Source: Clostridia bacterium
Lineage (GTDB): Bacteria > Bacillota > Clostridia > Oscillospirales > CAG-272
Length of the DNA stretch: 64,000 nt
Reading direction: 5' to 3'
Assembly: GCA_017407835.1 (NCBI GenBank)
Contig: JAFQVV010000027.1
Coordinates: 3,414-67,413 of the forward strand
In this document: piece after piece, positions 11,058-62,804 of the stretch
Position numbering within the stretch: the first letter of the stretch is position 1
Layout: the number at the start of each line of letters is the position of its first letter
Program-made: the position numbers and the translations under genes
The notes under the pieces: generated by a model
Databases searched by the model: none
Told to the model about the DNA's origin: nothing
Seen by the model: the letters and a program-made list of their open reading frames with translations, nothing else

Positions 11058-11086
11058 TTGACAATGCCGAATTTTTGCGCTATAAT
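11058..11086 (+). promoter_or_regulatory. Consensus promoter TTGACA-17-TATAAT for transketolase genes
   Basis: Read directly. Confidence 0.75.
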
Positions 11087-34813: not shown

Positions 34814-34842
34814 ATTATAAAACATAATGATGAATTTGTCAA
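34814..34842 (-). promoter_or_regulatory. Consensus promoter TTGACA-17-TATAAT for glcK (minus strand)
   Basis: Read on the reverse complement. Confidence 0.7.
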
Positions 34843-38882: not shown

Positions 38883-38935
38883 ACTGTTCGATTCGATCAT
38901 TTAATAAAGAAATCTGAAATAAGGAGAGAGCGCAA

Positions 38936-39883: not shown

Positions 39884-39884
39884 T

Positions 39885-40757: not shown

Positions 40758-40768
40758 GGAGGAAACCA

Positions 40769-42898: not shown

Positions 42899-42921
42899 CG
42901 GACAGATAGGAGAAAGATTTA

Positions 42922-45900
42922 ATGAAAAAATTTAGAATTATATCGGCCCTCTTAGCTGCGTTGATGTTGGTCGGTTCTCTTACGGTTTTTGAAGTAAGTG
43001 CAGTCACCATGGTTGACGAGGATACTTATCTCGGCAAAAATGGTGTTGAGCATGAAGTTATCAATTACACTACACAGAAACATGCAACCGACGAAGAAAA
43101 GCTGAAGACGATGGATGTAATGGTAGAAAATCTTTACGGCTACCGACTTTACGCCGATTATTATTCAGGTGAAGTTGCATGTACCAATCTGGCATCCGGC
43201 CAGACGATTTTTACCAATCCTTACAACATTGGTGATTCCAACGGCTCCGCTTCTATCAAACAGCAGCTGATGTCACAGGTTATTATCAAATATACCGATA
43301 ATGACCAGGAAAAATATTTCTACAGTTATGAAGAAGCCGCTCTTCGCGGACAGATCAATGTAGAAAGCATTAAAAACGGTGTGCGCGTTGAGTACACCAT
43401 CGGTCGTGAGGAAACTCGTATGCTGGTTCCTCGTATGATCAAAAAGGAGCGTCTGGAAAACGAAATTCTCGCCTACATCGATAATGAGTGGGCGTATGAT
43501 AAGGTTAAAGCGTTCTACGATTTGCTTGATCCTTCTAAGGAGGAAACCGAAAAGGCGGCAACCGAGCTGCAGAGTAAATTCCCCATCACCAAAAAGATGG
43601 CAGTTTACATTTTCGATGTCAGTGCCTCCATGGGTGAGCTGAGAACCGTTGAGGAATACATCAAAGAGTACTGCCCGCTCTTCACTTACGAAGTGCTTGA
43701 TGATGTACATGCACAGGTTGAGTATGAAGGTGCCGACCGCGCTCCCGCACTCTTCCGTCTGGCTATCGAGTATACCCTCGATGAGGACGGTCTGATGATT
43801 CGTGTTCCTTTCAATGGTCTGCGTTTCGATGAATCCGAGTATAAGCTGACGGATGTACAGATTCTTCCTTACCTGGGAGCAGGTGCAAGCCCGAATACCG
43901 GTTATACTTTCCTGCCTGATGGTTCGGGTACGACAATCAAATTTGAGGATATCGCCAAAGTTTCCTCAACTACCCTGACCAGTAAGCTTTATGGCTTGGA
44001 TTATGCTTATCACAATATTTCAGGTGCGCATTTTGAGCAGATGACTCTGCCGATTTACGGCTTGGTCGAGAATGTTGAGAAAACCATCTCCAAGCAGGTT
44101 GACAACATCGTTGAAACAGTAGATCCCGAGACCGGCGAGACAATTCAGACGGTGGACGGAACAAAGACGGTTCGTGAGGAATATAAGGAAGACCGAGGCT
44201 TTGCCGTTCTCATTGAAGAAGGCGAAGCATTGGCGGAGATTTCCTCTATCCACGGCGGATCACTGCATATGTACCATTCGGTTACCACGCGAATCGTTCC
44301 TCGCCCGAAAGATTCGTATAACCTCCGTGATGCAATTTCGGTTGGTTCCAATGCAACTTGGACGGTTGTTTCCGAGCGTAAGTATGTTGGTAACTTGAAG
44401 CTTCGTGTCTTTATGCTGACCGATCAGACGATCGCAGAAGAGAAGGGGCTGGAAGATACCTATGAACCTACCCATTACGGTATCCTTGCTGCTGTTCGTG
44501 ACTATTGGTTTAAGACGGGTGTACTCACTCGCTTGACCGAAGAAGATGTAAAAGAAGATATCCCGCTTTACATCGAATCGTTCGGCGCACTGGAGACGCT
44601 GGAAAAGGTCTTGTCCGTTCCTGTCTGGGTAATGACTCCCCTGACCACCTTTGACAATATCAAGACGATGTATGATGAACTCTCGGCTGAGGGTATTACC
44701 AACATCAACTTCCGTTTGACCGGTTTTGCCAACGGCGGTTTGTACAGTGAAATTCCCTCTGATCTGAAGTGGGAAAAAGTGGTTGGTGGCAGCGAAGGCT
44801 TTGAAGATCTTGTCGCGTATGCGAAGGAAAAAGATTTCGGCATTTTCCCCGACTTTGATTTCTCGTATTCCGATTACAACACACTCTTCGACTCGCTCAA
44901 TCTCAAGAAGCATGCAGTCAAGACCATCAACAATCAGTATACCTCTAAGCGCTACTACAGTGCGACCTACCAGTCCTTTGAGTCGTACGGCGAGCTGGCA
45001 ATCTCCCCTGCATATTTCGATTATTTCTATACCAAGCTGAATGCAAAATATCAGGAATACAATCCCGTTGGTATTTCGGTATCCACATTGGCATCCGATT
45101 TGAATTCAGACTTTGATGAGGATGAGCCTTACAACCGTGAGGATAACAAGGAATTTACGGTTGATCTTCTCAAGAAGCTTGACGAGGACTATGATCAGGT
45201 TATGTCGGATGTCGGTAATGCTTATGCACTGCCTTATGTTGACCACCTGCTTAATGTTCCTCTGGATTCCAGCCGTTTCCTGAAGGCCAGCAATTCAATT
45301 CCGGCAACGGGTATTCTGCTCCATGGCTCGATTAGCTTTGCCGGTACGCCGATCAATATGGCGGGCGATATTGCCTACGATTTCCTGAAAGCAATTGAAA
45401 ACGGTGCAAGCCTCTACTTTACGCTTTCTTATCAGAATACCGATGAACTCAAGGAAGATTTCCAGTTCAGTAAGTATTATTCGATTCGTTATGACATTTG
45501 GTTTGATGAAGTGGTTGAACGCTACAACGAACTCAATGCAATTACCAAGGATTTGCAAACTAAGCTGATCGTTGGTCATGAGTTCCTGATCGGTGAGCGT
45601 GTACCCGATGCGGACGAAATTGAAGCAGATAAGCAGGCGGTTCTCGACGCCGAAGCAGCACAAAAGGCCAAGGAAGAGGAAGCTGCCCGTAAAGCTGCAC
45701 TGGAAGAAGAGCGCGCAAAGCGTAAGGCCGAGGAAAACGGTGAGGAGTATATTCCTCCTGTTTCTGAGGAGGTTCCGGAAGAGAATACCGATTCTACCGA
45801 GTCTGTGAAACCCGAAGGCTATGTCTACACCAAGTACACCTCTGATGATGGCAGCATCGTTAAGGTAACGTACGAGGGTGGCATCATCTTCTACCTCAAC

Positions 45901-45981
45901 TATAACAACTTTGCCGTCACGATTGAAGATAACGGTCAGACCTATACGCTGTCTGCGTACGGCTATGTTAGAGTAAACTAA
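42922..45981 (+). CDS. Large secreted or anchored protein of unknown function (recalled as DUF5696-like)
   Basis: 1019 aa. N-terminal signal/anchor MKKFRIISALLAALMLVGSLTVFEVSA. No catalytic motif recognised by eye. Charged E/K/A-rich segment near nt 45605-45820. The family assignment is from memory of similar gene neighbourhoods and has not been verified. Confidence 0.6.
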   Translation: MKKFRIISALLAALMLVGSLTVFEVSAVTMVDEDTYLGKNGVEHEVINYTTQKHATDEEKLKTMDVMVENLYGYRLYADYYSGEVACTNLASGQTIFTNPYNIGDSNGSASIKQQLMSQVIIKYTDNDQEKYFYSYEEAALRGQINVESIKNGVRVEYTIGREETRMLVPRMIKKERLENEILAYIDNEWAYDKVKAFYDLLDPSKEETEKAATELQSKFPITKKMAVYIFDVSASMGELRTVEEYIKEYCPLFTYEVLDDVHAQVEYEGADRAPALFRLAIEYTLDEDGLMIRVPFNGLRFDESEYKLTDVQILPYLGAGASPNTGYTFLPDGSGTTIKFEDIAKVSSTTLTSKLYGLDYAYHNISGAHFEQMTLPIYGLVENVEKTISKQVDNIVETVDPETGETIQTVDGTKTVREEYKEDRGFAVLIEEGEALAEISSIHGGSLHMYHSVTTRIVPRPKDSYNLRDAISVGSNATWTVVSERKYVGNLKLRVFMLTDQTIAEEKGLEDTYEPTHYGILAAVRDYWFKTGVLTRLTEEDVKEDIPLYIESFGALETLEKVLSVPVWVMTPLTTFDNIKTMYDELSAEGITNINFRLTGFANGGLYSEIPSDLKWEKVVGGSEGFEDLVAYAKEKDFGIFPDFDFSYSDYNTLFDSLNLKKHAVKTINNQYTSKRYYSATYQSFESYGELAISPAYFDYFYTKLNAKYQEYNPVGISVSTLASDLNSDFDEDEPYNREDNKEFTVDLLKKLDEDYDQVMSDVGNAYALPYVDHLLNVPLDSSRFLKASNSIPATGILLHGSISFAGTPINMAGDIAYDFLKAIENGASLYFTLSYQNTDELKEDFQFSKYYSIRYDIWFDEVVERYNELNAITKDLQTKLIVGHEFLIGERVPDADEIEADKQAVLDAEAAQKAKEEEAARKAALEEERAKRKAEENGEEYIPPVSEEVPEENTDSTESVKPEGYVYTKYTSDDGSIVKVTYEGGIIFYLNYNNFAVTIEDNGQTYTLSAYGYVRVN

Positions 45982-45998
45982 GAAAGAGAGGTGTGCAT

Positions 45999-46964
45999 AT
46001 GACGAATACAAAACCCGCGGTTAAGTCCGCAAAGAAAAAAAAGCGTTACGCTTCTCTTGATAAGCGCAAGGCGCGTGCGGGGTGGTTCTTTGTCCTCCCG
46101 TTCGTACTTAGCTTCCTCATCATTTATGTGCCCATCATTTTTGAGTCCATCCGTCTCAGCTTTTTCCGCATTAAGCCGGTTATCGGCGGCGGATTTGAGT
46201 TGATTCCTGTTGGCTTCCAAAACTACCAAGAGGCACTTTTCGTCGATCCTGACTTTGCTCAAACGCTTCTGACCGGTCTGCAGCAGCTCGCGTTTGACAT
46301 TCCCGCAATCGTTATTTTCTCGCTGTTTATGGCAGTGCTGCTGAACCAGAAGATGGTTGGTCGTGCGGCTTTTCGTGCAATCTTCTTTATCCCGGTTATT
46401 CTGTCCACCGGTTTGATCGAATCGATTGATGCACAAAACACCATGACCGAGTATATGGATTCGGCAAGCGGTATCAACGACGGTTCGGGTGAGAGTGTTG
46501 CCTCAGACCTTGTATCGGCCATTGATGTCGAACGGCTCTTCGCCAACATGAAGGTCGGTAAAGACCTTGTTAAATATGTTGCGGATATGATTAACAATAT
46601 TTATAATATTGTTAATCGCTCCGGCGTACAGATGCTGATCTTCCTCGCCGGTTTGCAGTCTATTTCTGCCGCGATCTATGAGTCCTGCCAGATTGACGGC
46701 GCAAGCGCATGGGAAACCTTCTGGAAGATTACCTTCCCGATGATCAGCCCCATGATCCTGGTAAACGGCATTTATACCATCATCGACTCCTTCACCTCTG
46801 AATCAAATCAGGTTATGACGTTCATTGCAAAGGTATATACCCAGACAGACGGTAATGTGCTGTCCTCGGCAATGTCGTGGATGTACTTCCTGATTGTCAT
46901 GCTGATTATTGCAGCGGTCGCAGGTGTCATGTCGGCATATGTCTTCTACCAGAGAAGGGATTAA
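45999..46964 (+). CDS. Sugar ABC transporter permease (MalF-type), pair 2, with an extra loop of about 70 aa
   Basis: EAA loop YESCQIDGASAWETFWKITFPMISP. Insertion STGLIESIDAQNTMTEYMDSASG...NIVNRSG lies before the EAA-bearing helices. The ATG at 45999 is 7 nt after GAGAGG; the GTG at 45993 is an alternative. Confidence 0.85.
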   Translation: MTNTKPAVKSAKKKKRYASLDKRKARAGWFFVLPFVLSFLIIYVPIIFESIRLSFFRIKPVIGGGFELIPVGFQNYQEALFVDPDFAQTLLTGLQQLAFDIPAIVIFSLFMAVLLNQKMVGRAAFRAIFFIPVILSTGLIESIDAQNTMTEYMDSASGINDGSGESVASDLVSAIDVERLFANMKVGKDLVKYVADMINNIYNIVNRSGVQMLIFLAGLQSISAAIYESCQIDGASAWETFWKITFPMISPMILVNGIYTIIDSFTSESNQVMTFIAKVYTQTDGNVLSSAMSWMYFLIVMLIIAAVAGVMSAYVFYQRRD

Positions 46965-46976
46965 GGAGGGGAAAAA

Positions 46977-48035
46977 ATGGACGCACAAAATATGCAAAAA
47001 GCCCCCACGGTAATGAAGGAATCCAAGAACAAAATCAGAGTTGAGTTTGAGAGAACTCCGCTCAAGGAAAGATTGAAAGCGAAATTTATTTCGACCTTCT
47101 TCCTGCAGAAGTTTGTCTGGTTTATCTTCCGTCTTGTTCTTCTGATCGGTATTTCTTATGTTATCCTGTTCCCGTTCTTCTCGAAGATTTCCGGTTCCTT
47201 CATGGCACCGGAGGACTTCGTTGATGTTACGGTCCGCCTGATTCCGAAGCATTTTACTCTGGATACCTACAAGGCTATTGTCAATGATCTTGGATATTGG
47301 GATGCATTTATCAACACATTCCTTCTTTCCCTGTCCACAGCTCTGATCCAGACCTTCGTCTGCTGCCTGATTGCTTACGGTCTTGCAAAGTTTAAGTTCA
47401 AGGGCAATGGCATCGTATTCCTTGCTGTTATCCTGACGATGATTGTTCCTCACGAAACGCTTCGTCTCTCGCTGTTTATGGAGTTCCGCTATTTCGATAT
47501 CCTCGGCATCTTCAAGCTGCTTGGCGGTGGTGTAATCGAGTCGCTGAATGTTCTGCCTTTCACCGACATCAACCTCACCAATACCTTCTGGCCCTTGATT
47601 GTTCTGTCGATCGGTGGTCTGGGCTTCAAGAACGGTCTGTATATCTTTATGCTTCGTCAGTTCTTCCGCGGTGTGCCGGATGAGCTGGAGGAGTCGGCTT
47701 ACATCGACGGTTCGGGTACGCTTCGTACATTTATCCAGATTATTCTCCCGCTTTCCATTCCGATGATGATCACGGTGTTCCTCTTTGCCTTCTCTTGGCA
47801 GTGGACCGACGACTTCTACACCACGCTGTTCTTTACCACGCAGAAGACGACGTTGATGCCCGACATTATCAGCATTCCGAAATCCCTGCAAACCAACTAC
47901 GCAGGTCAGAACTTGTATTACTCGGCAATCCGTAATACTTGCGGTCTGATGATCATCTTCCCGTTGATCATTATGTACCTCTTCGGCCAGCGCTATCTCA
48001 TTCAGGGTATCGAGCGCTCGGGTATCACCGGCTAA
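46977..48035 (+). CDS. Sugar ABC transporter permease (MalG-type), pair 2, with an N-terminal extension of about 45 aa
   Basis: EAA loop EESAYIDGSGTLRTFIQIILPLSIP. Lys-rich N-terminal cytoplasmic extension. Confidence 0.85.
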   Translation: MDAQNMQKAPTVMKESKNKIRVEFERTPLKERLKAKFISTFFLQKFVWFIFRLVLLIGISYVILFPFFSKISGSFMAPEDFVDVTVRLIPKHFTLDTYKAIVNDLGYWDAFINTFLLSLSTALIQTFVCCLIAYGLAKFKFKGNGIVFLAVILTMIVPHETLRLSLFMEFRYFDILGIFKLLGGGVIESLNVLPFTDINLTNTFWPLIVLSIGGLGFKNGLYIFMLRQFFRGVPDELEESAYIDGSGTLRTFIQIILPLSIPMMITVFLFAFSWQWTDDFYTTLFFTTQKTTLMPDIISIPKSLQTNYAGQNLYYSAIRNTCGLMIIFPLIIMYLFGQRYLIQGIERSGITG

Positions 48036-52120: not shown

Positions 52121-52896
52121 AAATTGTTTATTTTGGCTACGATTTGTTTGCCGATTGTTTGGAGATGCTGCCTTCTCTCGGCGTTGAGGTGATGGCGATC
52201 TACAGTTTTCCTTCCGATGGCGTTTGTGATTTCCACGACCGCGTGCGAAGTTTTGCCGAGCGGAGAGGGATTCCGTTTACGGTGAATCGTGTGACCGAAC
52301 AGGCGTTGGAGCGGCTTGCAGACGAAGGATGCACACTGATGGTCAGTGCCGGCTATGCCTATCGTATTCCGATGCGCGAAGGCGGTTTGCGCGGGATTAA
52401 CCTGCACCCTGCGCTTCTGCCTTGCGGACGGGGCGCATGGCCGATGCCCATCACCATTTTGCGCGGACTGACCGAGAGTGGAGTTACTCTGCACAAATTG
52501 GCGCCTCGCTTTGACGAAGGGGATATTTTGGCGCAGGAACGCTTTGCCCTTGCACCCAATGAGACGCTGATTACGTTGACAAAAAAGCTGCAGGCGGCGG
52601 CACCTCCGCTTTTGCGGGAATTTTTTGCCGCCCCCGAAGCGATGTGGAGAAACGCACGCGAACAGGGGGAGGGGGAGTATTGGCAGCAGCCGAGTATTTC
52701 CGATATGACAATCACCCCCTCCATGACACTGGCGGAAGCAGATCGCATTTTGCGAGCGTTCGCCGGTGCCGAATGCTTTTGGTGTGACGGGGAGATTTCC
52801 CCGCGGCGAATTCGTTCTGCGCGAGTGATGCCAGAGAAACCGTCGATATCCTCTGCGCATCGTTTGCGCGATGGATATTTAGAGATCCTTTCGTGA
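52117..52896 (+). CDS. Formyltransferase-family protein (Fmt/PurN-like catalytic domain only)
   Basis: 259 aa with GINLHPALLPCGRG and LHKLAPRFDEGDIL motifs. ATGA overlap with the LysR stop. Confidence 0.75.
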   Translation: MKIVYFGYDLFADCLEMLPSLGVEVMAIYSFPSDGVCDFHDRVRSFAERRGIPFTVNRVTEQALERLADEGCTLMVSAGYAYRIPMREGGLRGINLHPALLPCGRGAWPMPITILRGLTESGVTLHKLAPRFDEGDILAQERFALAPNETLITLTKKLQAAAPPLLREFFAAPEAMWRNAREQGEGEYWQQPSISDMTITPSMTLAEADRILRAFAGAECFWCDGEISPRRIRSARVMPEKPSISSAHRLRDGYLEILS

Positions 52897-52946
52897 GTGG
52901 TCTGCACGATCCGTGCAGGAGCGAAAAAGCTATTTTGCGGATAACA

Positions 52947-52987
52947 AAAGAAAAAGCTCTCGATGATGTTGGGAGAGCTTTTTCTTT
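52947..52987. terminator. Bidirectional terminator (AAAGAAAAAGCTCTC / GAGAGCTTTTTCTTT)
   Basis: 15-bp stem between convergent genes. Confidence 0.8.
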
Positions 52988-53011
52988 ATGTCCCTTTTGA
53001 CCGAGAAAAGA

Positions 53012-54742
53012 TTAGTAACTTGTGCCGATCCGATAGGGAAGATTGAGTGTGATATTTTTGGAGCCCGCTACTAAAAGTTCCTTTGTGGAGCTTGCATTCT
53101 GCAGATATGCACTAAATGTGCGGGTATACATGGTGGCATAATCTTTATCGCCAACCGGCCACAGAACAACGGGAGCAGCGGCAAGTCGATATGCTGCCAC
53201 AACGCCGGCATAAGCGCTGGAGCCGGTTGTGTAGCCGTGATGTGCAGTCTGAACAAAATCACTTTCGAGATAATCATCGAACATTTCGGTGGTAATGGTC
53301 AGGGCATCATTTGAGGCGTCACCGAGGAAAAGGAAACGCTGATCGGCGATGTCCACGGTAAAGACAAGCGAAGAGGTGTTAAAGTAGCTCAATACATTCG
53401 GGGCATAGCTTTCCAGCGTGTAAAGAATCTCGATTTCCGCATCGCGCAAATAAAATTTTTGACCGACATGCGCCTTGATGATTTTGCACCCCGAGAAGCG
53501 TTTGGCACAGGAGATCAAGGTCGCACCGTAGCCACCTTCGTCTGCCAGTCCTCCTTCAATGCGTGCATCATCACTGGGGAAGTTTGCAATAAAGTTTTCT
53601 AAGGTCACACGCTTGGAAAAGGCCTTGGCAAAATAGGCAAAAGCACCGTAGTGGTCGCTGTGTGAGTGGGTAATAATCCAAGCTGCAATGGTAATATTAT
53701 TCGGATCGGGGGCGTTTTTGCGCATGAAAGAATAAATCTGTCCGACATCGCGTCCGCGATTGAAGCCGCCGTCAATGACAATATAACTGCCGTCCGCGAG
53801 TTGGAAGATAAAGCTCATCCCGTTTTCTGTGGTTGAGCCTCCGGCGGTAAACTCTAAGCCGATCATGGTAAGCTTTGGTTCAACAAGCCGGTTGTAGGTG
53901 TTTTCTGTTTCGCGTATGGGCAGTGACGTTTGATTCAAGGATTCAACCGTAATTCGTGTCTCCTTGTAAGCCGCGTAATAGCCGACATTGACCACATATC
54001 TGTTATCGGTATAGGTGACAAAAAGATTGGAGACGATTTCGTTGTCTGCGTAGAGGGTATATCCGTTTTGCTCAAGCCGTTTGCGATATGCCGAATATTC
54101 TTTTGCCGATGTAGCGGAGATCACAATAAGTGTGCATCCCGTTCCTGCATCGTAAATGGAGCTCAGCTCCCCTCCCGCATAGAGAGGAAGTGCACTGGCT
54201 GCTTTGTTGGACGATGCGGTAATGTTGAAATCGGCAGGCACAGCAAGAGAATTTTCGTCAGCGAGTCTCTTGATTTGCTTGATCAGGACATCAACCGCTT
54301 TGTCCAGTGCAGTATCGGATGCGGCATTGATGACCAGTTTGTTACCGACAAAACAGATAATGTAATCTCCGTAACCAAGACCGGTCAATGCTTGCTTGGA
54401 TTCAGCATAGGAGGTATTGCCCAGCAAAATTTCCAGCGAACTGTGATCCGGCTCGGCCCCCGCACGCTTGAAGTCGGTTTTGGTACTTGGCGTGCTTCCA
54501 AACTGTGTATGGAATGCTTTGCTTAATTTTTCCGCGGCATCAAGCACATTCTGGGATGCGGAACTGCTTCGAACAATGGTAAAGTTTATCTTGCCATTGT
54601 TTACCATGAGAATGTTTCCATCTGTCCCGGCAACAGTTGTCGGAAAATTCGATGTGTCTGCAAAAATGAAGATTGTGCTGCAGCAGATCAAAAAAATAAG
54701 GGAAAGAAGCAGCGCAAGCAAAGGGCGAGAATACTTTTTCAT
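53012..54742 (-). CDS. Secreted MBL-fold protein, paralog 1 of 4 (most divergent)
   Basis: 576 aa. Same three-part architecture as the other three paralogs. Motifs THSHSDHYGAF, FLGDAS and AHHGY. Atypical signal sequence (LICC). Lacks the C-terminal G(Y/F)(E/D)(S/T)I(L/I)K tail. Confidence 0.8.
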   Translation of the reverse strand: MKKYSRPLLALLLSLIFLICCSTIFIFADTSNFPTTVAGTDGNILMVNNGKINFTIVRSSSASQNVLDAAEKLSKAFHTQFGSTPSTKTDFKRAGAEPDHSSLEILLGNTSYAESKQALTGLGYGDYIICFVGNKLVINAASDTALDKAVDVLIKQIKRLADENSLAVPADFNITASSNKAASALPLYAGGELSSIYDAGTGCTLIVISATSAKEYSAYRKRLEQNGYTLYADNEIVSNLFVTYTDNRYVVNVGYYAAYKETRITVESLNQTSLPIRETENTYNRLVEPKLTMIGLEFTAGGSTTENGMSFIFQLADGSYIVIDGGFNRGRDVGQIYSFMRKNAPDPNNITIAAWIITHSHSDHYGAFAYFAKAFSKRVTLENFIANFPSDDARIEGGLADEGGYGATLISCAKRFSGCKIIKAHVGQKFYLRDAEIEILYTLESYAPNVLSYFNTSSLVFTVDIADQRFLFLGDASNDALTITTEMFDDYLESDFVQTAHHGYTTGSSAYAGVVAAYRLAAAPVVLWPVGDKDYATMYTRTFSAYLQNASSTKELLVAGSKNITLNLPYRIGTSY

Positions 54743-54789
54743 GAAAGAATCCTTTCGTTATTGATTAGCGCAGGGAGATTTGTAAATTC

Positions 54790-54816
54790 ATTATATCATG
54801 ATGATATGTTTGTCAA
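54790..54816 (-). promoter_or_regulatory. Promoter TTGACA-15-TATAAT with TG extension, for paralog 1
   Basis: Read on the reverse complement; the spacer is short. Confidence 0.5.
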
Positions 54817-54833
54817 GGCAGATAAATATAAGA

Positions 54834-54871
54834 CGACAGGGCACCGTGTCGATTGACACGGTGCCCTGTCG
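54834..54871 (-). terminator. 17-bp perfect hairpin after paralog 2 (CGACAGGGCACCGTGTC-GATT-GACACGGTGCCCTGTCG)
   Basis: Read directly; a weak U-rich tail on the minus strand. Confidence 0.65.
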
Positions 54872-54882
54872 CGGTTGAGCGT

Positions 54883-56640
54883 CTATTTCAAAATGGACTC
54901 ATACCCGCTGGTCCCAACGGTGTAGGGCAGAAGAAGGGTAATCTTTCTCGCACCTGCGACAAAGATTTCTTTTGTGGATTCCAGATCCTGCAAATACTTG
55001 CTTTGCGGACGCTTTTCCATGCTGGCGTAGTCTTTATCGCCGACCGGCCAGAGAACAACGGGGGCAGCGGCCAAGGAATAGAGTTTTTGTACGCCGGCAG
55101 AGGTGTTGTTGGCGATGCTGACCTGATAACCATGGTGAGCCACCTGAATAAAGTCACTCTTGAGATAATCGCCATACATGGCGGAGATAATCGCACAAGA
55201 ATCGTTGGAGGCATCACCCGTGATCAGGAATCGCTGTCCTGCGATATCTACGGTAAATACAAGGGAGGTGGTGTTGAAATAATTATCCAACGATCTGGGT
55301 AAAAAGCTCTCGATGGTGTAAAGGATTTCGATTTCTGCGTCGGCAATGAAGAACTTTTGGCCGACATGTGCCTGAATTACTTCGCAGTTTTCATAGTGAT
55401 CGGCATATTGCAGTACATAGACATAACCGCCTCCTTCGGTCATGTTGTCCATTTCACGTCCCTCGTCACTGAGAAAGTTGACGATGATTCGTTCCAGTGT
55501 AACATATTTGCTGTACTGGGCGTTGAATTGTGCGAAAGCACCGTAATGGTCGCCGTGTGCGTGGGTGATAATCCATGCGGCGATGACAATATTTTTGCGG
55601 TCGGGCGCATTTTTCTGCATGAAGTTAAGAATTTGGCTTGCATCGATGGAACGGCCGAATCCGCCATCTACGACAATGAATCTGCCGTCAGAGAGCTGCC
55701 AGACACCGCACTGACCGTTCTGTGATAGGTAGTTTTCACCGGAATCATACTCAAGACCAAGCTGGGCAAATTTGGGTTCTGTTACCTTTTCATACTGATT
55801 TTCTGCTTCCAGACCGGGGAGCGTGGTTTTGGGTTCAATGATGACACGAACTTCGTTGTTATAATCATAGTACCCCACACTGAGGAGATATTGATCATTG
55901 ATATAGGTTGCAAATTTGTTATCGGTAATATCATTGCTGGTGTACAGTGAGAAGCCTTTTTGCTCGATTGCCTGAAGGTAGGTATTGTATTCGTTAACAT
56001 CGGTATCGGAGAAAAGGAGGAGCTGGCTGTCATTGCCGGAAGGATAAATCGAACTGAGTGTTGCCTTTTCATAGAGAGGGAGAACATTCAGCTCTTCCTG
56101 CTCGGCGCCGGTGATCAAAATATCACCGGGAAGCGAGAAGTTTCCCTCAGTGGCATTTTCCTTAATGTTGCTGACCAACAGTGTGATGGCACGCTCGAGT
56201 GCTTTGGGTGCCCACGCATTGATGACGAGCTTATTGCCGACTTTTTTGATGATATAATCACCGTAAGCAAGGCCTTCCAGAGCTTCTGCTGATTCCTTGT
56301 AATTGGTATTGCCTACTAAGATCTCAAGGGTGTTGGGATCATGCTCTTCGCCCTTTTTGATCCAGTCTGTGGTGATTTTGGGTGAGACACCTGTTTGTTT
56401 GGCTAAGTACTGCAGCAGAACGGTTGCGGCATTGACGGTGGTTTCATCCGCATCTTCACTGCGGACGATGATATAATTGGCAACACCGTCCTTGATCACA
56501 TCAATGTCTGTGAGGATTGCTTCAGTTTCGGGTGCTTCTGTAGTTTCGCTAATATCGTCAGAGATCGGTGCATCGTTGCAGGCGATCAGTACAGTTGCCG
56601 CAAGGAGAAGGGTGAGCAGCAATAAGAGAAATCGTTTCAT
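54883..56640 (-). CDS. MBL-fold lipoprotein, paralog 2 of 4
   Basis: 585 aa. Lipobox VLIAC. Motifs THAHGDHYGAF, ITGDAS and AHHGY. Confidence 0.82.
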   Translation of the reverse strand: MKRFLLLLLTLLLAATVLIACNDAPISDDISETTEAPETEAILTDIDVIKDGVANYIIVRSEDADETTVNAATVLLQYLAKQTGVSPKITTDWIKKGEEHDPNTLEILVGNTNYKESAEALEGLAYGDYIIKKVGNKLVINAWAPKALERAITLLVSNIKENATEGNFSLPGDILITGAEQEELNVLPLYEKATLSSIYPSGNDSQLLLFSDTDVNEYNTYLQAIEQKGFSLYTSNDITDNKFATYINDQYLLSVGYYDYNNEVRVIIEPKTTLPGLEAENQYEKVTEPKFAQLGLEYDSGENYLSQNGQCGVWQLSDGRFIVVDGGFGRSIDASQILNFMQKNAPDRKNIVIAAWIITHAHGDHYGAFAQFNAQYSKYVTLERIIVNFLSDEGREMDNMTEGGGYVYVLQYADHYENCEVIQAHVGQKFFIADAEIEILYTIESFLPRSLDNYFNTTSLVFTVDIAGQRFLITGDASNDSCAIISAMYGDYLKSDFIQVAHHGYQVSIANNTSAGVQKLYSLAAAPVVLWPVGDKDYASMEKRPQSKYLQDLESTKEIFVAGARKITLLLPYTVGTSGYESILK

Positions 56641-56692
56641 TTTTTACCTCCTGAAAATCGTGATACTTCGCAAGGAATTTGTTCCTTCTTCA

Positions 56693-56721
56693 ATTATACG
56701 AAGTGGGCGGGGGAATGTCAA
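56693..56721 (-). promoter_or_regulatory. Consensus promoter TTGACA-17-TATAAT for paralog 2
   Basis: Read on the reverse complement. Confidence 0.7.
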
Positions 56722-56781
56722 GTCGATTTGGTCGAATTCGACGAATTGCCCAATAAATGATATATTTTTCAGAGTGCAATA

Positions 56782-56810
56782 TAAGTGCCGCGTGTTGTAC
56801 GCGGCACTTA
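56782..56810 (-). terminator. 12-bp hairpin after paralog 3 (TAAGTGCCGCGT/ACGCGGCACTTA)
   Basis: Read directly; no clear U-tract. Confidence 0.5.
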
Positions 56811-56825
56811 TCGATATAGGGATAA

Positions 56826-58565
56826 TTATTTCAAAATGGTGTCAAATCCGCTTGTTCCATAAGTATAGGGCAGAGAAATTGTAAATGTGCGAGAACCGGC
56901 GACCACAATTTCTTTGGTTGTTTCAGCTTCCTGCAGATATTTGCTGTAGGAGTAGGCGCCGACCACGTGCTTATAGTTGTAGTCGCCGACAGGCCAAAGG
57001 ACAACGGGGGCGGCGGCGGCTTTGTAAACACTAAGCGTACCATAGGAGCCGGAAGAGCCATTGCTGTATCCATGATGCGAGGTTTGGATAAAATCACTCT
57101 TGAGATAGTCGCCAAATGCGTGATAAAGGATAGCGCAGGCCAGTTCATCCGCATCGCCCAAAATCAGGAAACGCTGACCGCCCAACGTGATGGAGAACGC
57201 AAGTGAAGCGGTATTAAGATCGGAAAAGGTTTGAGGAAGGATATCTTCCTGTGTGTAAAGAATTTCAAGTACGGCATCGCGCAGGTAGAGCTTTTGACCG
57301 GTGTGCGCGGTCAGGAATTTTGATCCTGCAAAGTACTTTTGGGCATTGGTTACAATGGATGAAACCCCATTGGGGGAGACACCTCCCTCAATAAAATCGG
57401 ACGTGGGGAAATTGCCAATGACCAGTTCAACATTGACTTTTTTTCCGTAAACTTCACTGAAGCGGTAATAAGCACCGTGATGGTCGCCGTGTCCGTGAGT
57501 AATGAGCCATGCGGCGATGGTGATGTTTTCGGGATCGGGTGCATTGTTCTTCATATATCGGTAGAGTGTTTGCGTGTCATGCACATTGTTGAAGCCGCCG
57601 TCAACGATAATGTAGCTGCCATCGGCGAGCTGCCATACAAAAGACATACCGTTTTGCAGATCAGATTGGGACTCCAAGCCGATCATGGTAAATTTCGGTT
57701 CAACTGCCTTCTGATAGGTGTTTTCCGCTTCGGTAATCGGCAATGTGGTGCGAGGTTCGATGGTGATGCGGGTTTCTTCCTTGTGTGCATAATAAGCCAG
57801 GTTAACCACATACGCATCGGTAACATATGTAGAGAACTTGTTCTCGGCAATGTTGTTCTGTGCGTACTCGGTATAGCCGTTCGCCTTCAGTGCATTAAGA
57901 TATGTGTCGTAGGCAGAAGCATTGGTTTCTTCAAAAATCAAAAGTCGAACATCCTTGGTGGAGGTATAGATGGAATCCAAGCTGCCGTTGGGATAAATAG
58001 GCAGGGTGTTTACCCCTTCAATTGCGGTGTCGGTTACTTGAAAATTACCCGGCAATGAGAAATTCCCATCGGTAGCGGAAGCGATCATTTCATCGGCCAG
58101 TTCGGTGATGGCGCGGGACAGACCGTCGGCACTCCATGCGTTGATGACGAGCTTGTTGCCATCTGCCTTGATAATGAAGTCACCGTAGGTGAGGGTATCC
58201 AGTGCATTGCTCGATTCGCTGTATGCAGTCCGACCGATCAGAATTTCGAATGTAGAATGATCGTAGTCGCTTCCGGGCTTAATCCAGTCGGTTGCCAGTA
58301 TCGGTGACACACCGGTGTACTGTGCGATGAGTTTGCGGAGCCGCGAAGCGGCTTCGACCGTGGCCTGGTCGGCATTATCGGGGCGAACAATCGTATAGTT
58401 GGCAACTCCGTCCTTGACAATATCGATTTCGGAAGGAATCGGAGGAGTTGTTTCCGTTGCTGTCGTATCGGTGGTGTCGGGGGGATTGGGGGTGTCGCCG
58501 TTACATGCAGAGAGAGCCAAAGCAGCAATCAGCAGAAGGGCGAGCAGGGTAAACAAGCGCTTCAT
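56826..58565 (-). CDS. MBL-fold lipoprotein, paralog 3 of 4
   Basis: 579 aa. Lipobox ALSAC. Motifs THGHGDHHGAY, ILGDAD and SHHGY. Confidence 0.82.
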   Translation of the reverse strand: MKRLFTLLALLLIAALALSACNGDTPNPPDTTDTTATETTPPIPSEIDIVKDGVANYTIVRPDNADQATVEAASRLRKLIAQYTGVSPILATDWIKPGSDYDHSTFEILIGRTAYSESSNALDTLTYGDFIIKADGNKLVINAWSADGLSRAITELADEMIASATDGNFSLPGNFQVTDTAIEGVNTLPIYPNGSLDSIYTSTKDVRLLIFEETNASAYDTYLNALKANGYTEYAQNNIAENKFSTYVTDAYVVNLAYYAHKEETRITIEPRTTLPITEAENTYQKAVEPKFTMIGLESQSDLQNGMSFVWQLADGSYIIVDGGFNNVHDTQTLYRYMKNNAPDPENITIAAWLITHGHGDHHGAYYRFSEVYGKKVNVELVIGNFPTSDFIEGGVSPNGVSSIVTNAQKYFAGSKFLTAHTGQKLYLRDAVLEILYTQEDILPQTFSDLNTASLAFSITLGGQRFLILGDADELACAILYHAFGDYLKSDFIQTSHHGYSNGSSGSYGTLSVYKAAAAPVVLWPVGDYNYKHVVGAYSYSKYLQEAETTKEIVVAGSRTFTISLPYTYGTSGFDTILK

Positions 58566-58613
58566 AAGGGATCCTCCTGAGTTTTTTGTGCAAATATAAG
58601 GAAAGTACTCTAA

Positions 58614-58642
58614 TTATAGCAAACATGATCATGTTTGTCAAT
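58614..58642 (-). promoter_or_regulatory. Consensus promoter TTGACA-17-TATAAT for paralog 3
   Basis: Read on the reverse complement. Confidence 0.7.
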
Positions 58643-58701
58643 GCCTTTGGTTTAACATCATTATGTTTGTTTTTTAACGATGTAAGCTTTCTTTAACAGC
58701 G

Positions 58702-58735
58702 AAGCGGTGCTTGGCAAAGATGCCAAGCACCGCTT
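58702..58735 (-). terminator. 15-bp hairpin after paralog 4 (AAGCGGTGCTTGGCA-AAGA-TGCCAAGCACCGCTT)
   Basis: Read directly. The T-run is on the plus-strand side only. Confidence 0.5.
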
Positions 58736-58743
58736 TTGGGGGA

Positions 58744-60495
58744 TTATTTGATGATGGATTCATAGCCGCTGGTACCGACGGTGTAGGGGAGTATGAATCG
58801 AATATTGCGTGAACCGGCAACGAAGATCTCTTTCGTAGTACCCAATTCCTGTAGATGCAGGCTCTGTGCGCGTGTGTTCATGCCGGCATAATCCAGTGCG
58901 CCGAGCGGCCAGAGGACAACGGGGGAGGCGGCAAGATCATAGACTGCCGTTACGCCCTGGTAGGCCGAGGAGCCGGTGGTGTAGCCGTGATGTGCTGCGT
59001 GAATGATGTCGCTTTTGAGATAGTCGCCGTACATTTGAGATGTGATTGTGCAGGCATCATTGGAAGCATCGCCCAAAATTAAGAATTGCTGACCGCCGAT
59101 TTTCATGGTGAAAATCAGCGATGAGGTGTTGAAATAGGAGAGAACACCCGGAGCGAAGCTTTCGAGCGTATAGAGTATCTCAATTTCGGCATCGCGAATG
59201 TAGAACTTGTGTCCCACATGGGTTTTGATAAATTCCGCATCTTGGTAGTTGTCAAGATACTTCATGATTTTGTGGCCGAGGTTGCCTTCGGTGCCGAGAC
59301 CGCCTTCTTCACGTGCTTCGTCACTGGGGAAATTGCCGATCACGCACTCTAACGTCACACGGTTGGCATAGGTTTCGCTGAATGCAAAGTAGGCGCCGCT
59401 GTGGTCACCATGAGAATGGGTAAAAATCCATGCGGCGATGGTGATGTTGTTTTTGTCGGGGGCGTGCTCGTACATATAGTCATAGAGCGCTTTGGCATCT
59501 CGCGCACGGTTGAAGCCGCCGTCGGCGATAATATAGCTGCCGTCGGCGAGCTGCCAGATAAAGCAGAGGCCGTTTTGCGCAAGTTCTTCTTCGTACATGT
59601 ACTCAAGTCCAAGCATGGCAAAGCTGGGGTCCATCACCTTTGTATATTGATTGTCGGCCGAAAGCGCGGGCAGGGTGCTTCGAGGCTCGATGATGCTGCG
59701 TGATTCTGTGGCGTAATCATAGTAACCTGCGTTGATCACATAATCATCGGTAATATAGGTGGCAAATTTGTTGTCGGTAATTTCATTTTCGGTATAAAGC
59801 GAAAAACCCTCTTTTACCAGTTTGGCGCAGTAAGCATCGTATGCTTCACGCGTGGTATCCCTGATGAGAAGCAGTTGGTTGTCATCGCCTGCGTGATAAA
59901 CCGTGCTGAATGTACCTCCTTCATAGAAGGGAAGGGCGTTTGCTGTTTCGCTGTCGGTTCCGGTCATTCGGATATTGGAAGGAAGCGAGAAGCTGCCGTC
60001 TGAAGCCGTTTTGATGAGCTGTACCGTAAATTCCGAGATTGCCCGATCAAGCGCCGGCTGACTCCAGGCGTTGATGACAATTTTGTTGCCGATCGCCGTA
60101 ATGATGTAGTCCCCGTAAGGGATTCCTTCCAGTGCCTGTGCAGATTCGGGATGAAGGGTATTGCCGATCAGAATTTCATGTGCGGCGGCATCCGGTTCTT
60201 CGCCGCGTTTGGTCCAGTCGGTGGAAATCTTAGGGAAGATGCCGGTATATTCCTTGATGCTTTGGGCGACAAGTACAGCGGCATCAATGGTGTTTTGGTT
60301 TGCATTTTCGGGACGTACGACGGTATAATTGGCAACGCCGTCTTGGACAATTGCAATATCCCTGACAGGCGTTTCGGTTTCGTTGATGAGGGGAGATGAA
60401 GTGTCGGGGGGATGGGGATGATTGCTGTCTCCGCATGCGGCCAGAAGAGACAGGCACAAGGCAAGCAGAATGAGCAGGGTGTGTGTACGGTTCAT
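58744..60495 (-). CDS. MBL-fold lipoprotein, paralog 4 of 4
   Basis: 583 aa. Lipobox LLAAC. Motifs THSHGDHSGAY, ILGDAS and AHHGY. Confidence 0.82.
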   Translation of the reverse strand: MNRTHTLLILLALCLSLLAACGDSNHPHPPDTSSPLINETETPVRDIAIVQDGVANYTVVRPENANQNTIDAAVLVAQSIKEYTGIFPKISTDWTKRGEEPDAAAHEILIGNTLHPESAQALEGIPYGDYIITAIGNKIVINAWSQPALDRAISEFTVQLIKTASDGSFSLPSNIRMTGTDSETANALPFYEGGTFSTVYHAGDDNQLLLIRDTTREAYDAYCAKLVKEGFSLYTENEITDNKFATYITDDYVINAGYYDYATESRSIIEPRSTLPALSADNQYTKVMDPSFAMLGLEYMYEEELAQNGLCFIWQLADGSYIIADGGFNRARDAKALYDYMYEHAPDKNNITIAAWIFTHSHGDHSGAYFAFSETYANRVTLECVIGNFPSDEAREEGGLGTEGNLGHKIMKYLDNYQDAEFIKTHVGHKFYIRDAEIEILYTLESFAPGVLSYFNTSSLIFTMKIGGQQFLILGDASNDACTITSQMYGDYLKSDIIHAAHHGYTTGSSAYQGVTAVYDLAASPVVLWPLGALDYAGMNTRAQSLHLQELGTTKEIFVAGSRNIRFILPYTVGTSGYESIIK

Positions 60496-60553
60496 TTTAA
60501 CCTCCTGAAGGGATAAATTGCGGCATATTGTTTTATTTTCCTACATAATAAAT

Positions 60554-60582
60554 ATTATACTAAATAAGCGTTTTACTGTCAA
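60554..60582 (-). promoter_or_regulatory. Consensus promoter TTGACA-17-TATAAT for paralog 4
   Basis: Read on the reverse complement. Confidence 0.7.
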
Positions 60583-60645
60583 CCGTTCATGCGCAAAATC
60601 TTTAATTCAGCATTTTTATATTTGAAAGGAAATTTGCAAAAAAGC

Positions 60646-60674
60646 TTGCAATCTGTCGGAATTTACTGTATAAT
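60646..60674 (+). promoter_or_regulatory. Promoter TTGCAA-17-TATAAT for the zinc-ribbon membrane protein gene
   Basis: Read directly. Confidence 0.65.
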
Positions 60675-60721
60675 AAATTTGCATATATTGCAAAAATCGA
60701 TTCAATCAGGAGGAACTCACG

Positions 60722-61177
60722 ATGGCTTTTTGTACGAAATGCGGTACCGAATTGCCGGCTGAAGCGAAGGCTTGTCCCAACTGCGGAACAATGATTGCCG
60801 AAGAAGGGGTACAGTCCAATCCCGTCCCCCAACCCGAAGCACCTGCTTCGCCCGCGGCCGCCGATCATACGGCGGAGTTTGATGCAAAGGACATTGCAGA
60901 CAACAAGGTGATGGCGGTGCTTGCGTATATTGGGATCCTTGTTTTGATTCCTCTTCTGGTTTCGCCTGCCAAGGATTCGCCTTTTGTCCGATATCATGTC
61001 AACTTTGGTCTGATTCTTTGGATCGGCGGGATGATTTCGGGTTTGCTGTCCGTGGTATGCATTGGTGTAATCACGGGGATCATTTGCCTTGTTCTTGCCA
61101 TTATGGGCATTGTCAACGCGGCGAACGGTACGGCAAAGGACTTGCCTATCATCGGGAAAATCCGTCTGCTTAAATAA
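60722..61177 (+). CDS. Zinc-ribbon + DUF4870-like small membrane protein
   Basis: N-terminal CTKCG...CPNCG zinc ribbon. C-terminal AVLAYIGILVLIPLL...FVRYHVNFGL membrane module. Confidence 0.75.
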   Translation: MAFCTKCGTELPAEAKACPNCGTMIAEEGVQSNPVPQPEAPASPAAADHTAEFDAKDIADNKVMAVLAYIGILVLIPLLVSPAKDSPFVRYHVNFGLILWIGGMISGLLSVVCIGVITGIICLVLAIMGIVNAANGTAKDLPIIGKIRLLK

Positions 61178-61226: not shown

Positions 61227-62069
61227 TTATTTGTATCGACGCCCGGTCTGCTCCAGATAGAGGTGCGCAGGCAGTGTCCAGTCGGTTTGGATGATATCAT
61301 AGCCGCGATCAGCCAGCCACCCCCAACCAAGGTCGGGATCTTTGGTCATCGAGATGTCATCCGAGTGTCCGGCGGCGAGAACGGCAGTGTAGTTGTAAAC
61401 GATTGCATTTGCCCAAAGCAGCAGCCCTTTTCGGTGCATGGCTTCAATATATTCAGGCTGTGCGGTCGGACTTTGCTCGGTACGGAAAAGCACTTCTGCT
61501 CCTACCAGATTGATGTTCATTTCGCGCAGCAGATCGGTGCATTCATCAATTTCGCTGATGATGGGCATGTAGGGCAGGTCGGGGGCGATTTCTTCGACCA
61601 TCTTAAACCATTTTTCCTGTGCCGATGTTTTCACGATGACCTGATCGCGTAATCCGTGACGGCGGATAGCGGCTGTAATTTCGGGCATGGCGGTCCAGAA
61701 TTTGTCGATGTTAATGATACAGCGCCCCTTGAGCAGCTCAAACACATCATCAATGCTGCTGACGCTGTATGCGGTTGGCGTTTGATCCTGATTGACATAA
61801 GTGAGATGGGCGGCTTCCTCTGCCTGCATATCTTTAATCTGTACGTCGGATTTCAGATGTGCTCGCTCCATACCCGGGTGGAATACATAGAGCTGACGGT
61901 CGGCAGTGACGGCGATATCGATTTCAACGATATCCGCTCCTTGACGAAGTGCGATTTCGTATGCTTCGAGGGTATTGCAGGGAATGTTTCCTCCCGCCAC
62001 GCCGCGGTGTGCTGCCAAAAGTACGCGTTCGGCAGCGGCAGTACGCAAATCTGTTTTGTTCATGATCAC
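61227..62069 (-). CDS. Glycerophosphodiester phosphodiesterase family protein
   Basis: LLAAHRGVAGGNIPCNTLEAYEIALRQGADIVEIDIAVTADRQLYVFH is a typical GDPD N-terminal motif. Confidence 0.85.
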   Translation of the reverse strand: MIMNKTDLRTAAAERVLLAAHRGVAGGNIPCNTLEAYEIALRQGADIVEIDIAVTADRQLYVFHPGMERAHLKSDVQIKDMQAEEAAHLTYVNQDQTPTAYSVSSIDDVFELLKGRCIINIDKFWTAMPEITAAIRRHGLRDQVIVKTSAQEKWFKMVEEIAPDLPYMPIISEIDECTDLLREMNINLVGAEVLFRTEQSPTAQPEYIEAMHRKGLLLWANAIVYNYTAVLAAGHSDDISMTKDPDLGWGWLADRGYDIIQTDWTLPAHLYLEQTGRRYK

Positions 62070-62180: not shown

Positions 62181-62209
62181 TTGACAATATGATATTTATT
62201 CTATATAAT
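62181..62209 (+). promoter_or_regulatory. Consensus promoter TTGACA-17-TATAAT for rubrerythrin
   Basis: Read directly. Confidence 0.72.
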
Positions 62210-62264: not shown

Positions 62265-62804
62265 ATGGAATTCAAAGGAAGCAGAACCGAAGCAAATCTT
62301 ATGGCCGCATTTGCAGGCGAATCCCAGGCACGCAACAAGTACACCTACTACGCATCCAAGGCCAAGAAGGATGGCTATGAGCAGATCGCCGCACTCTTTA
62401 CCGAGACTGCCGAAAATGAGAAGGAGCACGCAAAGATCTGGTTCAAGCTGCTCCATGACGGCGGCATTCCCGACACCATGGCCAACTTGGCCGACGCTGC
62501 CGCCGGCGAGCACTACGAGTGGACCGATATGTACGCTACCTTCGCCCGTGAGGCAAAGGAAGAGGGCTTCGATCACATCGCGTTCCTGTTCGAAGAGGTT
62601 GCCAAGATCGAGAAAGAACACGAGGAGCGCTATCGCCGCCTGCTGGCCAACATCGAGGAGGGCATCGTCTTCTCCCGTGATGGCGACACCATCTGGAAGT
62701 GCCGCAACTGCGGTCACATCGTGATCGGTAAGCAGGCCCCCGAGGTTTGCCCCGTCTGCGCGCATCCCAAGTCCTACTTCGAGATCAAGGCTGAGAACTA
62801 TTGA
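62265..62804 (+). CDS. rbr: Rubrerythrin
   Basis: Di-iron ExxH motifs ([16 protein letters not shown]) and a C-terminal rubredoxin CRNCG...CPVC. Confidence 0.95.

Follow-up and report, generated by a model that had tools for sequence, protein, structure and literature searches.

What would a gut bacterium do with four diverged copies of one exported hydrolase, placed side by side? The question is raised by a 64-kb stretch of DNA from an uncultured ruminant-gut Clostridia genome (64,000 nucleotides, hereafter the window; identical to a ruminant-gut metagenome scaffold), in which the open reading frame (ORF) listing places four adjacent minus-strand ORFs of 576-585 amino acids (aa), here called paralogs 1 to 4, whose products end in a metallo-beta-lactamase (MBL) fold domain. 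Lipobox patterns, alignment and structure modelling show the products to be predicted exported metallo-hydrolases, with paralogs 2-4 lipid-tethered on the outer face of the membrane and paralog 1 a secreted form, and show the C-terminal MBL domain to have kept a complete putative binuclear metal site of the Pce/ComEC type. At a probability of roughly 40%, we read these proteins as Pce-like surface phosphodiesterases acting on glycopolymers that are decorated with, or linked by, phosphodiesters.

Domain layout, metal site and export

The four proteins align from end to end with pairwise identities of 46-55%, and the MBL domain is the most conserved region (55% across the four copies, against 47% for the N-terminal domain, 45% for the middle domain and 32% for the signal peptide and linker). 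AlphaFold2, given an alignment of 59 sequences, modelled paralog 2 with confidence (predicted local distance difference test score, pLDDT, 91.8; predicted template-modelling score, pTM, 0.87) as a signal peptide, a linker and then three domains. The only disordered part is the linker, rich in Thr, Pro and Glu, that follows the cysteine of the lipobox (residues 21-35); in paralogs 2-4 the disordered tether to the membrane is ~25 residues long. An earlier sequence-only reading had proposed that the copies share one three-domain architecture, that about half of the positions, by eye, are identical between them and that paralog 1 is the outlier; full-length alignment, measured identities and the model bear out all of this. 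Paralog 1 lacks both a lipobox and the family's C-terminal tail, GTSG(Y/F)(E/D)(S/T)I(L/I)K, ending in GTSY; its Shine-Dalgarno sequence is weaker (GAAAGGA vs AGGAGG), and a neighbour-joining tree gives it no clear orthologue in related arrays. No fifth copy was found in the window by tblastn.

Conservation of the metal site was assessed in a set of 59 homologues sharing 38-73% identity with paralog 2. Pfam Lactamase_B (PF00753) is matched at 25.4-42.9 bits in the four paralogs, relative to a gathering score of 22.7, and in 59 of the 59 homologues at E ≤ 0.05. The motifs DGGF, H(A/S/G)H(G/S)DH, (A/T)H(V/T)G, NTxSL, GDA(S/D) and HHGY are found in all four copies, including every MBL motif quoted in the sequence-only reading. 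In paralog 2 numbering, D325, H360, D364, H365, N456, S459, D476, H502 and H503 are invariant among the homologues, with H362 and H425 conserved in at least 90% of them; loss of metal ligands, which would mark pseudo-enzymes, was checked by alignment, and the ligands are intact in the four copies and invariant or at least 90% conserved in the 59 homologues. No Lys or Arg of the MBL domain reaches 90% conservation, but five aromatic residues do (W356, Y441, Y521, W531 and Y573), and the least conserved stretch of the domain is residues 391-420, between motif II and H425. The proteins are acidic, with a mature isoelectric point of 4.5-5.3 and an MBL-domain net charge of -8 to -17.

Which characterised enzyme stands closest depends on the level of comparison. 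Against the PDB, Foldseek gave 107 matches at E ≤ 1e-3, and the listed ones are almost without exception proteins of the MBL fold. The best is the MBL domain of ComEC (9ic4; E 1.5e-13, target TM score 0.75), next comes Pce/CbpE of S. pneumoniae (2bib and 1wra; E 5e-12 to 2e-11, TM 0.62), and later matches are an MBL arylsulfatase (8gyg; E 8e-9, TM 0.56), YhfI/ElaC-like proteins and RNase J/CPSF73. Run against PDB sequences, the family profile finds Pce/CbpE first (E 1.6e-6, with tHxHsDH, N-x-x-S-L, GD and HH aligned) and ComEC proteins second (9e-5 to 2.5e-3), while a single-sequence search of the same set gave nothing at E < 0.05. Compared with Pce, ComEC has Asp in place of one motif II His, and Asn occupies motif III (PMC8579336). 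The window proteins have the Pce-type HxHxDH without the ComEC Asp substitution, and their invariant N456 aligns in the profile with the ComEC/Pce N-x-x-S position. The earlier placement closest to the ComEC/Rec2 clade thus holds for the fold, but not at the profile level or for motif II, and the clade is better named Pce/ComEC.

Pce/CbpE is an extracellular, wall-proximal MBL phosphodiesterase with a binuclear metal centre, traits predicted for the array proteins as well, and its catalytic module is homologous to theirs, but identity is just ~15-17% and the homology distant. Pce is a single gene whose product is anchored by C-terminal choline-binding repeats, whereas the array proteins are diversified tandem copies with an N-terminal lipid anchor, two extra N-terminal domains and, in H425, an additional near-invariant histidine; no choline-binding repeat family appears among their Pfam matches at E ≤ 1, and the array protein ends right after the MBL domain. 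The ComEC MBL domain (9ic4, 9vc6) likewise faces the membrane exterior and has the N...GD...HHG string in common with the array family. ComEC differs in its competence channel and OB-fold (DUF4131) domains, none of which the array proteins have, and the array proteins differ in their acidity and in the absence of conserved basic residues from the MBL domain; ComEC_Rec2 (TIGR00361) reaches 15-31 of the 190 bits required by its cut-off, with the MBL part alone aligned. A full-length match to a family of established function was sought in Pfam, NCBIfam, PDB sequences and the literature and none was found, in agreement with the sequence-only reading, and literature searches found no paper on the full-length family. 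A role in anti-phage defence was considered and rejected: Avs1a reaches at most 27 bits against 420 and 6A-MBL at most 15 against 220, and the proteins are exported.

Lipoprotein calls were made with the lipobox pattern [LVI][ASTVI][GAS]C or the strict G+LPP pattern, not with a signal-peptide predictor. Paralogs 2-4 have a lipobox (LIAC, LSAC and LAAC), and the strict pattern is found in 45 of the 59 homologues, most of the others being lipobox-like and ~5 of signal-peptidase-I type. Paralog 1 fails the pattern (LICC, then IFA followed by D, in the context …FLICCSTIFIFA followed by DT), and its signal peptide is probably cleaved by signal peptidase I between IFA and D. What the sequence-only reading had called a signal or lipoprotein peptide can therefore be resolved into a lipobox in paralogs 2-4 and a signal-peptidase-I type in paralog 1. 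Arrays elsewhere often mix lipoprotein copies with 1-2 secreted copies of signal-peptidase-I type. The signal peptide is the only hydrophobic segment of the window proteins, which have no transmembrane channel domains.

The two domains ahead of the catalytic one were also modelled separately (paralog 2 residues 44-290, pLDDT 94.6). Residues 44-180 have the fold of the N-terminal accessory domain of glycoside hydrolase (GH) families GH115, GH84 and GH20 (Foldseek; 7pxq at E 4e-6, and 2v5c, 3gh7 and 7dva at up to 1e-3, over ~130-165 columns), and the N-domain of one homologue weakly matches the Pfam family NAGLU_N of GH89. In glycosidases this accessory domain precedes a TIM barrel, whereas in the array proteins it precedes an unmatched alpha+beta domain and the MBL domain; no GH N-terminal-domain Pfam model is significant on the four window proteins, and no GH catalytic (TIM-barrel) match was obtained. 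The middle domain had no structural match among the Foldseek matches listed for residues 44-290, where N-domain matches dominate, and in Pfam it gave only sub-threshold matches to DUF6591 (10 of the 59 homologues) and SPOR.

The N-domain is not confined to this arrangement. A profile of the N-domain and middle domain, compared with 1.84 billion representative proteins, matched 3565 clusters (50% identity) at E ≤ 1e-3 and 1635 at E ≤ 1e-10, and most of the best matches are either canonical proteins of ~580-630 aa or proteins of ~700-750 aa with a duplicated N-domain and an MBL domain. Others depart further: P0259 (3270 aa) has seven N-domain matches together with one EEP (endonuclease/exonuclease/phosphatase) and one SGNH esterase domain by Pfam, and since the sequence between its N-domains looks repetitive the EEP unit may recur; P0258 (640 aa) has two N-domains and a PHP/CehA-McbA-like metallohydrolase; P0167 (1103 aa) is a double-MBL protein whose motif II reads HPD(E/V)DH; and in P0252 (868 aa) QNDGDH replaces HxHxDH. 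Its presence in front of such varied hydrolases suggests that the N-domain is a portable module placed ahead of different extracellular hydrolase domains, several of them phosphoesterases.

Candidate substrates and competing readings

Judged by sequence and fold, the nearest characterised relatives, Pce and ComEC, are phosphodiester hydrolases. Within that chemistry, several features lead us to favour glycopolymers over nucleic acid: the N-domain is of glycosidase type; the genomic context is rich in glycosidase, esterase, glycerophosphodiester phosphodiesterase (GDPD) and solute-binding-like genes; many old, diverged paralogues have been kept, which would suit chemically diverse substrates; and both the whole proteins and their MBL domains are acidic. 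The five conserved aromatics, in a domain with no conserved Lys or Arg, would also fit a Pce-like pocket better than a DNA groove, and the catalytic face of ComEC, for comparison, is predicted to be strongly positive (PMC5031224).

In the scheme that we propose, the enzymes would hydrolyse phosphodiester bonds of extracellular glycoconjugates as Pce does, either removing phospho-linked substituents (phosphocholine, phosphoethanolamine or glycerol-phosphate) or cutting sugar-phosphate linkages in teichoic-acid-like, capsular or phosphoglycan polymers. The N-domain and middle domain, which the model packs rigidly on the catalytic domain, would probably shape or support the substrate site. The products would be imported and finished in the cytoplasm by GDPD, metallophosphoesterase, SGNH esterase and glycosidases of the kinds encoded beside the arrays, and old duplication and divergence to 2-7 tandem copies would have given varied specificities for chemically diverse substrates.

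A number of points weigh against this proposal. MBL motifs do not specify chemistry, being common to sulfatases, lactonases and thioesterases, and to our knowledge no sugar-binding role has been demonstrated in glycosidases for an N-terminal domain of this type. Each of the neighbour associations is found in a minority of loci, and in the window itself GDPD alone is adjacent. Moreover, two of the three characterised branches of the clade, ComEC (PMC8579336) and the defence MBLs (bioRxiv 10.1101/2025.09.03.673762), are DNases, so that homology alone gives no preference for glycopolymers.

It is the last of these points that gives weight to the main rival, which we consider serious though rather unlikely: that the proteins are surface or secreted nucleases which, like the C-terminal domain of ComEC, break down DNA or RNA outside the cell, to scavenge nucleotides and phosphate or to remodel biofilms. 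The top Foldseek match is the ComEC MBL domain, in NCBIfam ComEC_Rec2 and the Avs1a defence MBL score best, if far short of their cut-offs, and the DNase activity of ComEC and the defence MBLs cited above is experimental; nucleases occur in each of the superfamilies of the MBL, EEP and PHP domains that are joined to this N-domain; and lipoprotein nucleases are known from other bacteria (PMC11729948). The acidity of the proteins and their MBL domains speaks against a nuclease, as does the lack, across the 59 homologues, of any basic MBL residue conserved to 90%, in contrast to the positive face of ComEC, and motif II has the HxHxDH of Pce and not the ComEC form. Four to seven (4-7) old, diverged paralogues are also hard to explain for a chemically uniform substrate, and genes nearby encode carbohydrate and ester enzymes for the most part, not enzymes of nucleoside or nucleotide salvage.

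We regard as improbable the idea that the arrays encode other MBL esterases acting on glycan decorations or small molecules, such as type III sulfatases, lactonases, or carboxyl- or thio-esterases. The MBL aryl- and alkyl-sulfatases are ester-cleaving hydrolases with an MBL fold and HxHxDH, and arylsulfatase 8gyg ranks third among the distinct proteins matched by fold; a context of GH20, GH35 and GH38 is typical of host-glycan degradation, which needs sulfate removal, and the co-occurring SGNH esterases suggest a decoration-stripping set of enzymes. The fold match to 8gyg is, however, weaker than those to ComEC and Pce (TM 0.56 vs 0.75 and 0.62) and has no counterpart in sequence, since at the profile level only Pce and ComEC are found, with the common N-x-x-S-L...GD...HH string. 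The sulfatase accessory domains are missing too, no alkyl-sulfatase dimerisation or SCP2 domain being matched in Pfam at E ≤ 1, and the NCBIfam class B beta-lactamase core model scores 16-27 bits against a cut-off of 100 and the subclass models 13-14 against 200.

The enzymes might instead perform housekeeping on the cell's own envelope, much as Pce trims phosphocholine from pneumococcal teichoic acid, and take no part in nutrient harvest. Such a role would agree with Pce being the closest relative at the sequence-profile level, with membrane anchoring next to the wall and with consensus promoters that have no obvious regulatory leader, yet we think it somewhat more doubtful again: one syntenic locus holds anything between 1 and 7 copies in related genomes, with copies gained and lost rapidly, which is unusual for housekeeping, the proteins have no wall-binding repeats, and catabolic genes, AraC regulators and a solute-binding-like lipoprotein are frequently adjacent. 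It is very improbable that the proteins lack catalysis and serve at the surface as binding proteins or adhesins built on a dead MBL scaffold, for despite the altered motif II of distant members such as P0252 and P0167 every metal-ligand motif is preserved in the window's four copies and invariant or nearly so across the 59 homologues.

If we return to Pce-like phosphodiesterases of glycopolymers as the preferred reading, a further proposal, which is tentative, is that the arrays are the core of a hitherto unrecognised nutrient-harvesting strategy by which uncultured gut Oscillospirales and other Clostridia employ diversified, highly expressed surface phosphodiesterases. Were this so, the arrays would break down glycopolymers linked by phosphodiesters, whether from other microbes or from the host (teichoic acids, capsules, phosphomannans and phospho-decorated glycans), often alongside a solute-binding-like lipoprotein and cytoplasmic GDPD, metallophosphoesterase and SGNH enzymes, and would form a phosphoglycan counterpart of polysaccharide utilisation loci. 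If the proteins are surface phosphodiesterases of phosphate-linked glycopolymers, they would explain how abundant but uncultured gut Firmicutes draw carbon and phosphorus from teichoic acids, capsules and phosphoglycans. The glycosidase-type N-terminal domain would then have a catalytic partner of a new kind, and enzymes able to cleave these polymers would become available. The four window copies, which have simple promoters and well-defined domain limits, could serve as constructs for biochemistry as they stand.

Distribution, turnover and transcription of the arrays

The MBL superfamily and its likely chemistry are already known, and sequences of this family are public under the generic name 'MBL fold metallo-hydrolase'. 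What is new is the combination of a GH-type N-domain, an unmatched middle domain and a Pce/ComEC-type MBL domain, the size of the family and its confinement to gut Clostridia (among the best 80 of at least 517 loci), and the dynamic tandem arrays. A word-indexed search found 539 homologues, those with names being called 'MBL fold metallo-hydrolase' or 'hypothetical protein' and coming from Clostridia or Ruminococcaceae metagenome-assembled genomes. In a collection with one genome per bacterial or archaeal species, at least 517 relatives are encoded. The best 80 all belong to uncultured Clostridia, Oscillospiraceae or 'Eubacteriales', with ruminants, deer, horse, rabbit and humans as hosts; individual loci carry L numbers below. 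Sequence databases already contain the window proteins (P0001; P0045 and P0056 equal paralogs 3 and 1 in length).

One metagenome sample has a variant of the paralog 3 gene (L004:1164-2897), identical to about residue 515 and then altered by a few indels that put the last ~60 residues out of frame and give a 577-aa product. The difference reflects either an error of assembly or a frameshift at strain level (pseudogenisation).

Tandem arrays are the rule among the retrieved loci (tblastn), and several genomes have additional loci. Oscillospiraceae SIG693 (L008) has seven copies, L027, L048, L065 and L067 have six, and many others have 2-4. At the syntenic position GDPD - Zn-ribbon membrane protein - array - formyltransferase … alaS, the number of copies is 1, 2, 4 or 7. 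In the neighbour-joining tree, paralog 2 pairs with the third copy of L008 (L008_3; 69% identity) and paralog 4 with L008_5 and L005_2 (60-63%), while paralog 3 groups loosely with L008_4, 6 and 7; such pairings with copies from other species indicate that the duplications predate these species and that the arrays are under birth-and-death turnover. Synonymous sites are saturated among the four copies and their orthologues (proportion of synonymous differences, pS, 0.70-0.79), so that the ratio of non-synonymous to synonymous change (dN/dS) can be given just as an upper bound of ~0.1-0.2. Where dS is estimable, dN/dS is 0.11-0.22, and it is 0.36 for a younger pair in L005; by these sequence comparisons, selection is purifying overall.

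Each copy has its own consensus promoter and hairpin (Table 1). The three perfect promoters claimed in the sequence-only reading were found, 40-60 nt 5' of paralogs 4, 3 and 2, and one correction is needed: both hexamers are perfect at paralog 1 as well, where the spacer is short. Perfect-hexamer sites with a spacer of 15-19 nt number seven in the 64 kb, against 0.01 expected from shuffles, and four of the seven belong to the array; one of the others precedes a rubrerythrin gene (62265-62804). The hairpin that had been noted after each copy was likewise recovered, as a strong structure directly 3' of all four stop codons, although a clear T-rich tail is present only at those of paralogs 1 and 2, and the hairpin of paralog 1 is common to the convergent formyltransferase gene. 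Four monocistronic, probably strongly transcribed units are the arrangement best supported by these signals. In related arrays many copies have promoters matching 11-12 of 12 positions ~30-50 nt upstream, and some copies, spaced by just 16-24 nt, are probably co-transcribed. An Rfam scan of 52800-60800 found no leader or riboswitch, only two chance-level matches on the terminal hairpin.

The spacer of the paralog 3 promoter contains a perfect 14-bp palindrome, AACATGATCATGTT (58622-58635), with a 2-mismatch copy just upstream of the -35 hexamer (58654-58667). It could be an operator, but we set this reading aside, since no other paralog is preceded by the palindrome and the number of its occurrences in the window is not significant.

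Table 1. Positions and properties of the array, its signals and associated genes (window coordinates unless preceded by a locus number)
Feature	Position	Strand	Remarks
Paralog 1 coding sequence	53012-54742	-	576 aa; outlier
Paralog 2 coding sequence	54883-56640	-	585 aa; lipoprotein, lipobox VLIAC; copy used for structure model
Paralog 3 coding sequence	56826-58565	-	579 aa; lipoprotein, lipobox ALSAC; motif II HGHGDH
Paralog 4 coding sequence	58744-60495	-	583 aa; lipoprotein, lipobox LLAAC; Shine-Dalgarno AGGAGG; motif II HSHGDH
N-terminal alpha/beta domain, paralog 2 residues 44-180	56101-56511	-	Fold of GH115/GH84/GH20 N-terminal accessory domain
Middle alpha+beta domain, paralog 2 residues 181-285	55786-56100	-	beta-beta-alpha-beta4; unmatched
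MBL-fold catalytic domain (predicted), paralog 2 residues 286-585	54886-55785	-	D325, H360-x-H362-x-D364-H365, H425, N456, D476, H502-H503
Promoter, paralog 4	60554-60582	-	TTGACA-17-TATAAT, 12/12
Promoter, paralog 3	58613-58641	-	TTGACA-17-TGcTATAAT, 12/12 and extended -10; palindrome AACATGATCATGTT in spacer
Promoter, paralog 2	56693-56721	-	TTGACA-17-TATAAT, 12/12
Promoter, paralog 1	54790-54816	-	TTGACA-15-TGaTATAAT; both hexamers perfect, short spacer, extended -10
Hairpin 3' of paralog 4	58702-58735	-	15-bp stem, -29.5 kcal/mol, z -6.5, weak T tail
Hairpin 3' of paralog 3	56781-56811	-	13-bp stem, -22.0 kcal/mol, z -7.2
Hairpin 3' of paralog 2	54833-54872	-	18-bp stem, -38.6 kcal/mol, z -10.3, T-rich tail
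Hairpin 3' of paralog 1	52947-52987	-	15-bp stem and U tail, -21.9 kcal/mol, z -5.0
Other perfect TTGACA-N17-TATAAT site	11058-11086	+	
Other perfect TTGACA-N17-TATAAT site	34814-34842	-	
Other perfect TTGACA-N17-TATAAT site	62181-62209	+	Before rubrerythrin
Zinc-ribbon/MamF_MmsF membrane protein	60722-61177	+	Flanks array
GDPD+DUF4996 glycerophosphodiester phosphodiesterase	61227-62069	-	Cytoplasmic; array neighbour in two diverged lineages
~500-aa solute-binding-like lipoprotein	L069:5489-6961, L005:3093-4601, L057:8443-9936		19 further loci

Genes beside the arrays

The Zn-ribbon and GDPD genes stay beside the array in related genomes with 1-7 MBL copies. GDPD is nearby in the window's own lineage (L001, L005 and L008) and lies directly upstream of the arrays in L021, L022, L026 and L047, a lineage whose proteins are ~35% identical to those of the window. 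At other loci the neighbours include GH20 (L088, L089), GH35, GH38, GH10, SGNH esterases, AP_endonuc_2 TIM barrels and AraC regulators. When flanking ORFs were clustered, the commonest neighbour proved to be a lipoprotein of ~500 aa, with 23 members spread over 22 loci, usually encoded just upstream and in the same orientation; it gives only sub-threshold SBP_bac_1/SBP_bac_8 matches and no NCBIfam match, and it is absent from the 64-kb window. The next-commonest clusters are AP_endonuc_2 (8 loci), AraC regulators, GH78 and PHP proteins.

Elsewhere in the window, at 35916-48035, is a lower-GC ABC-type sugar-transport locus with an unusually large solute-binding protein (988 aa), four permease genes, a 1019-aa DUF5696 protein and a 782-aa NHL/TPR/Yip1 membrane protein. 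This locus (35.9-48 kb) was considered as a part of the array and rejected, being separated from it by alaS and regulators and unconserved beside arrays elsewhere.

At L086:7209-12440, four closely spaced genes in an apparent operon encode two MBL lipoproteins together with a GDSL esterase and a metallophosphoesterase, both cytoplasmic, a cluster that would pair exported with intracellular ester hydrolases.

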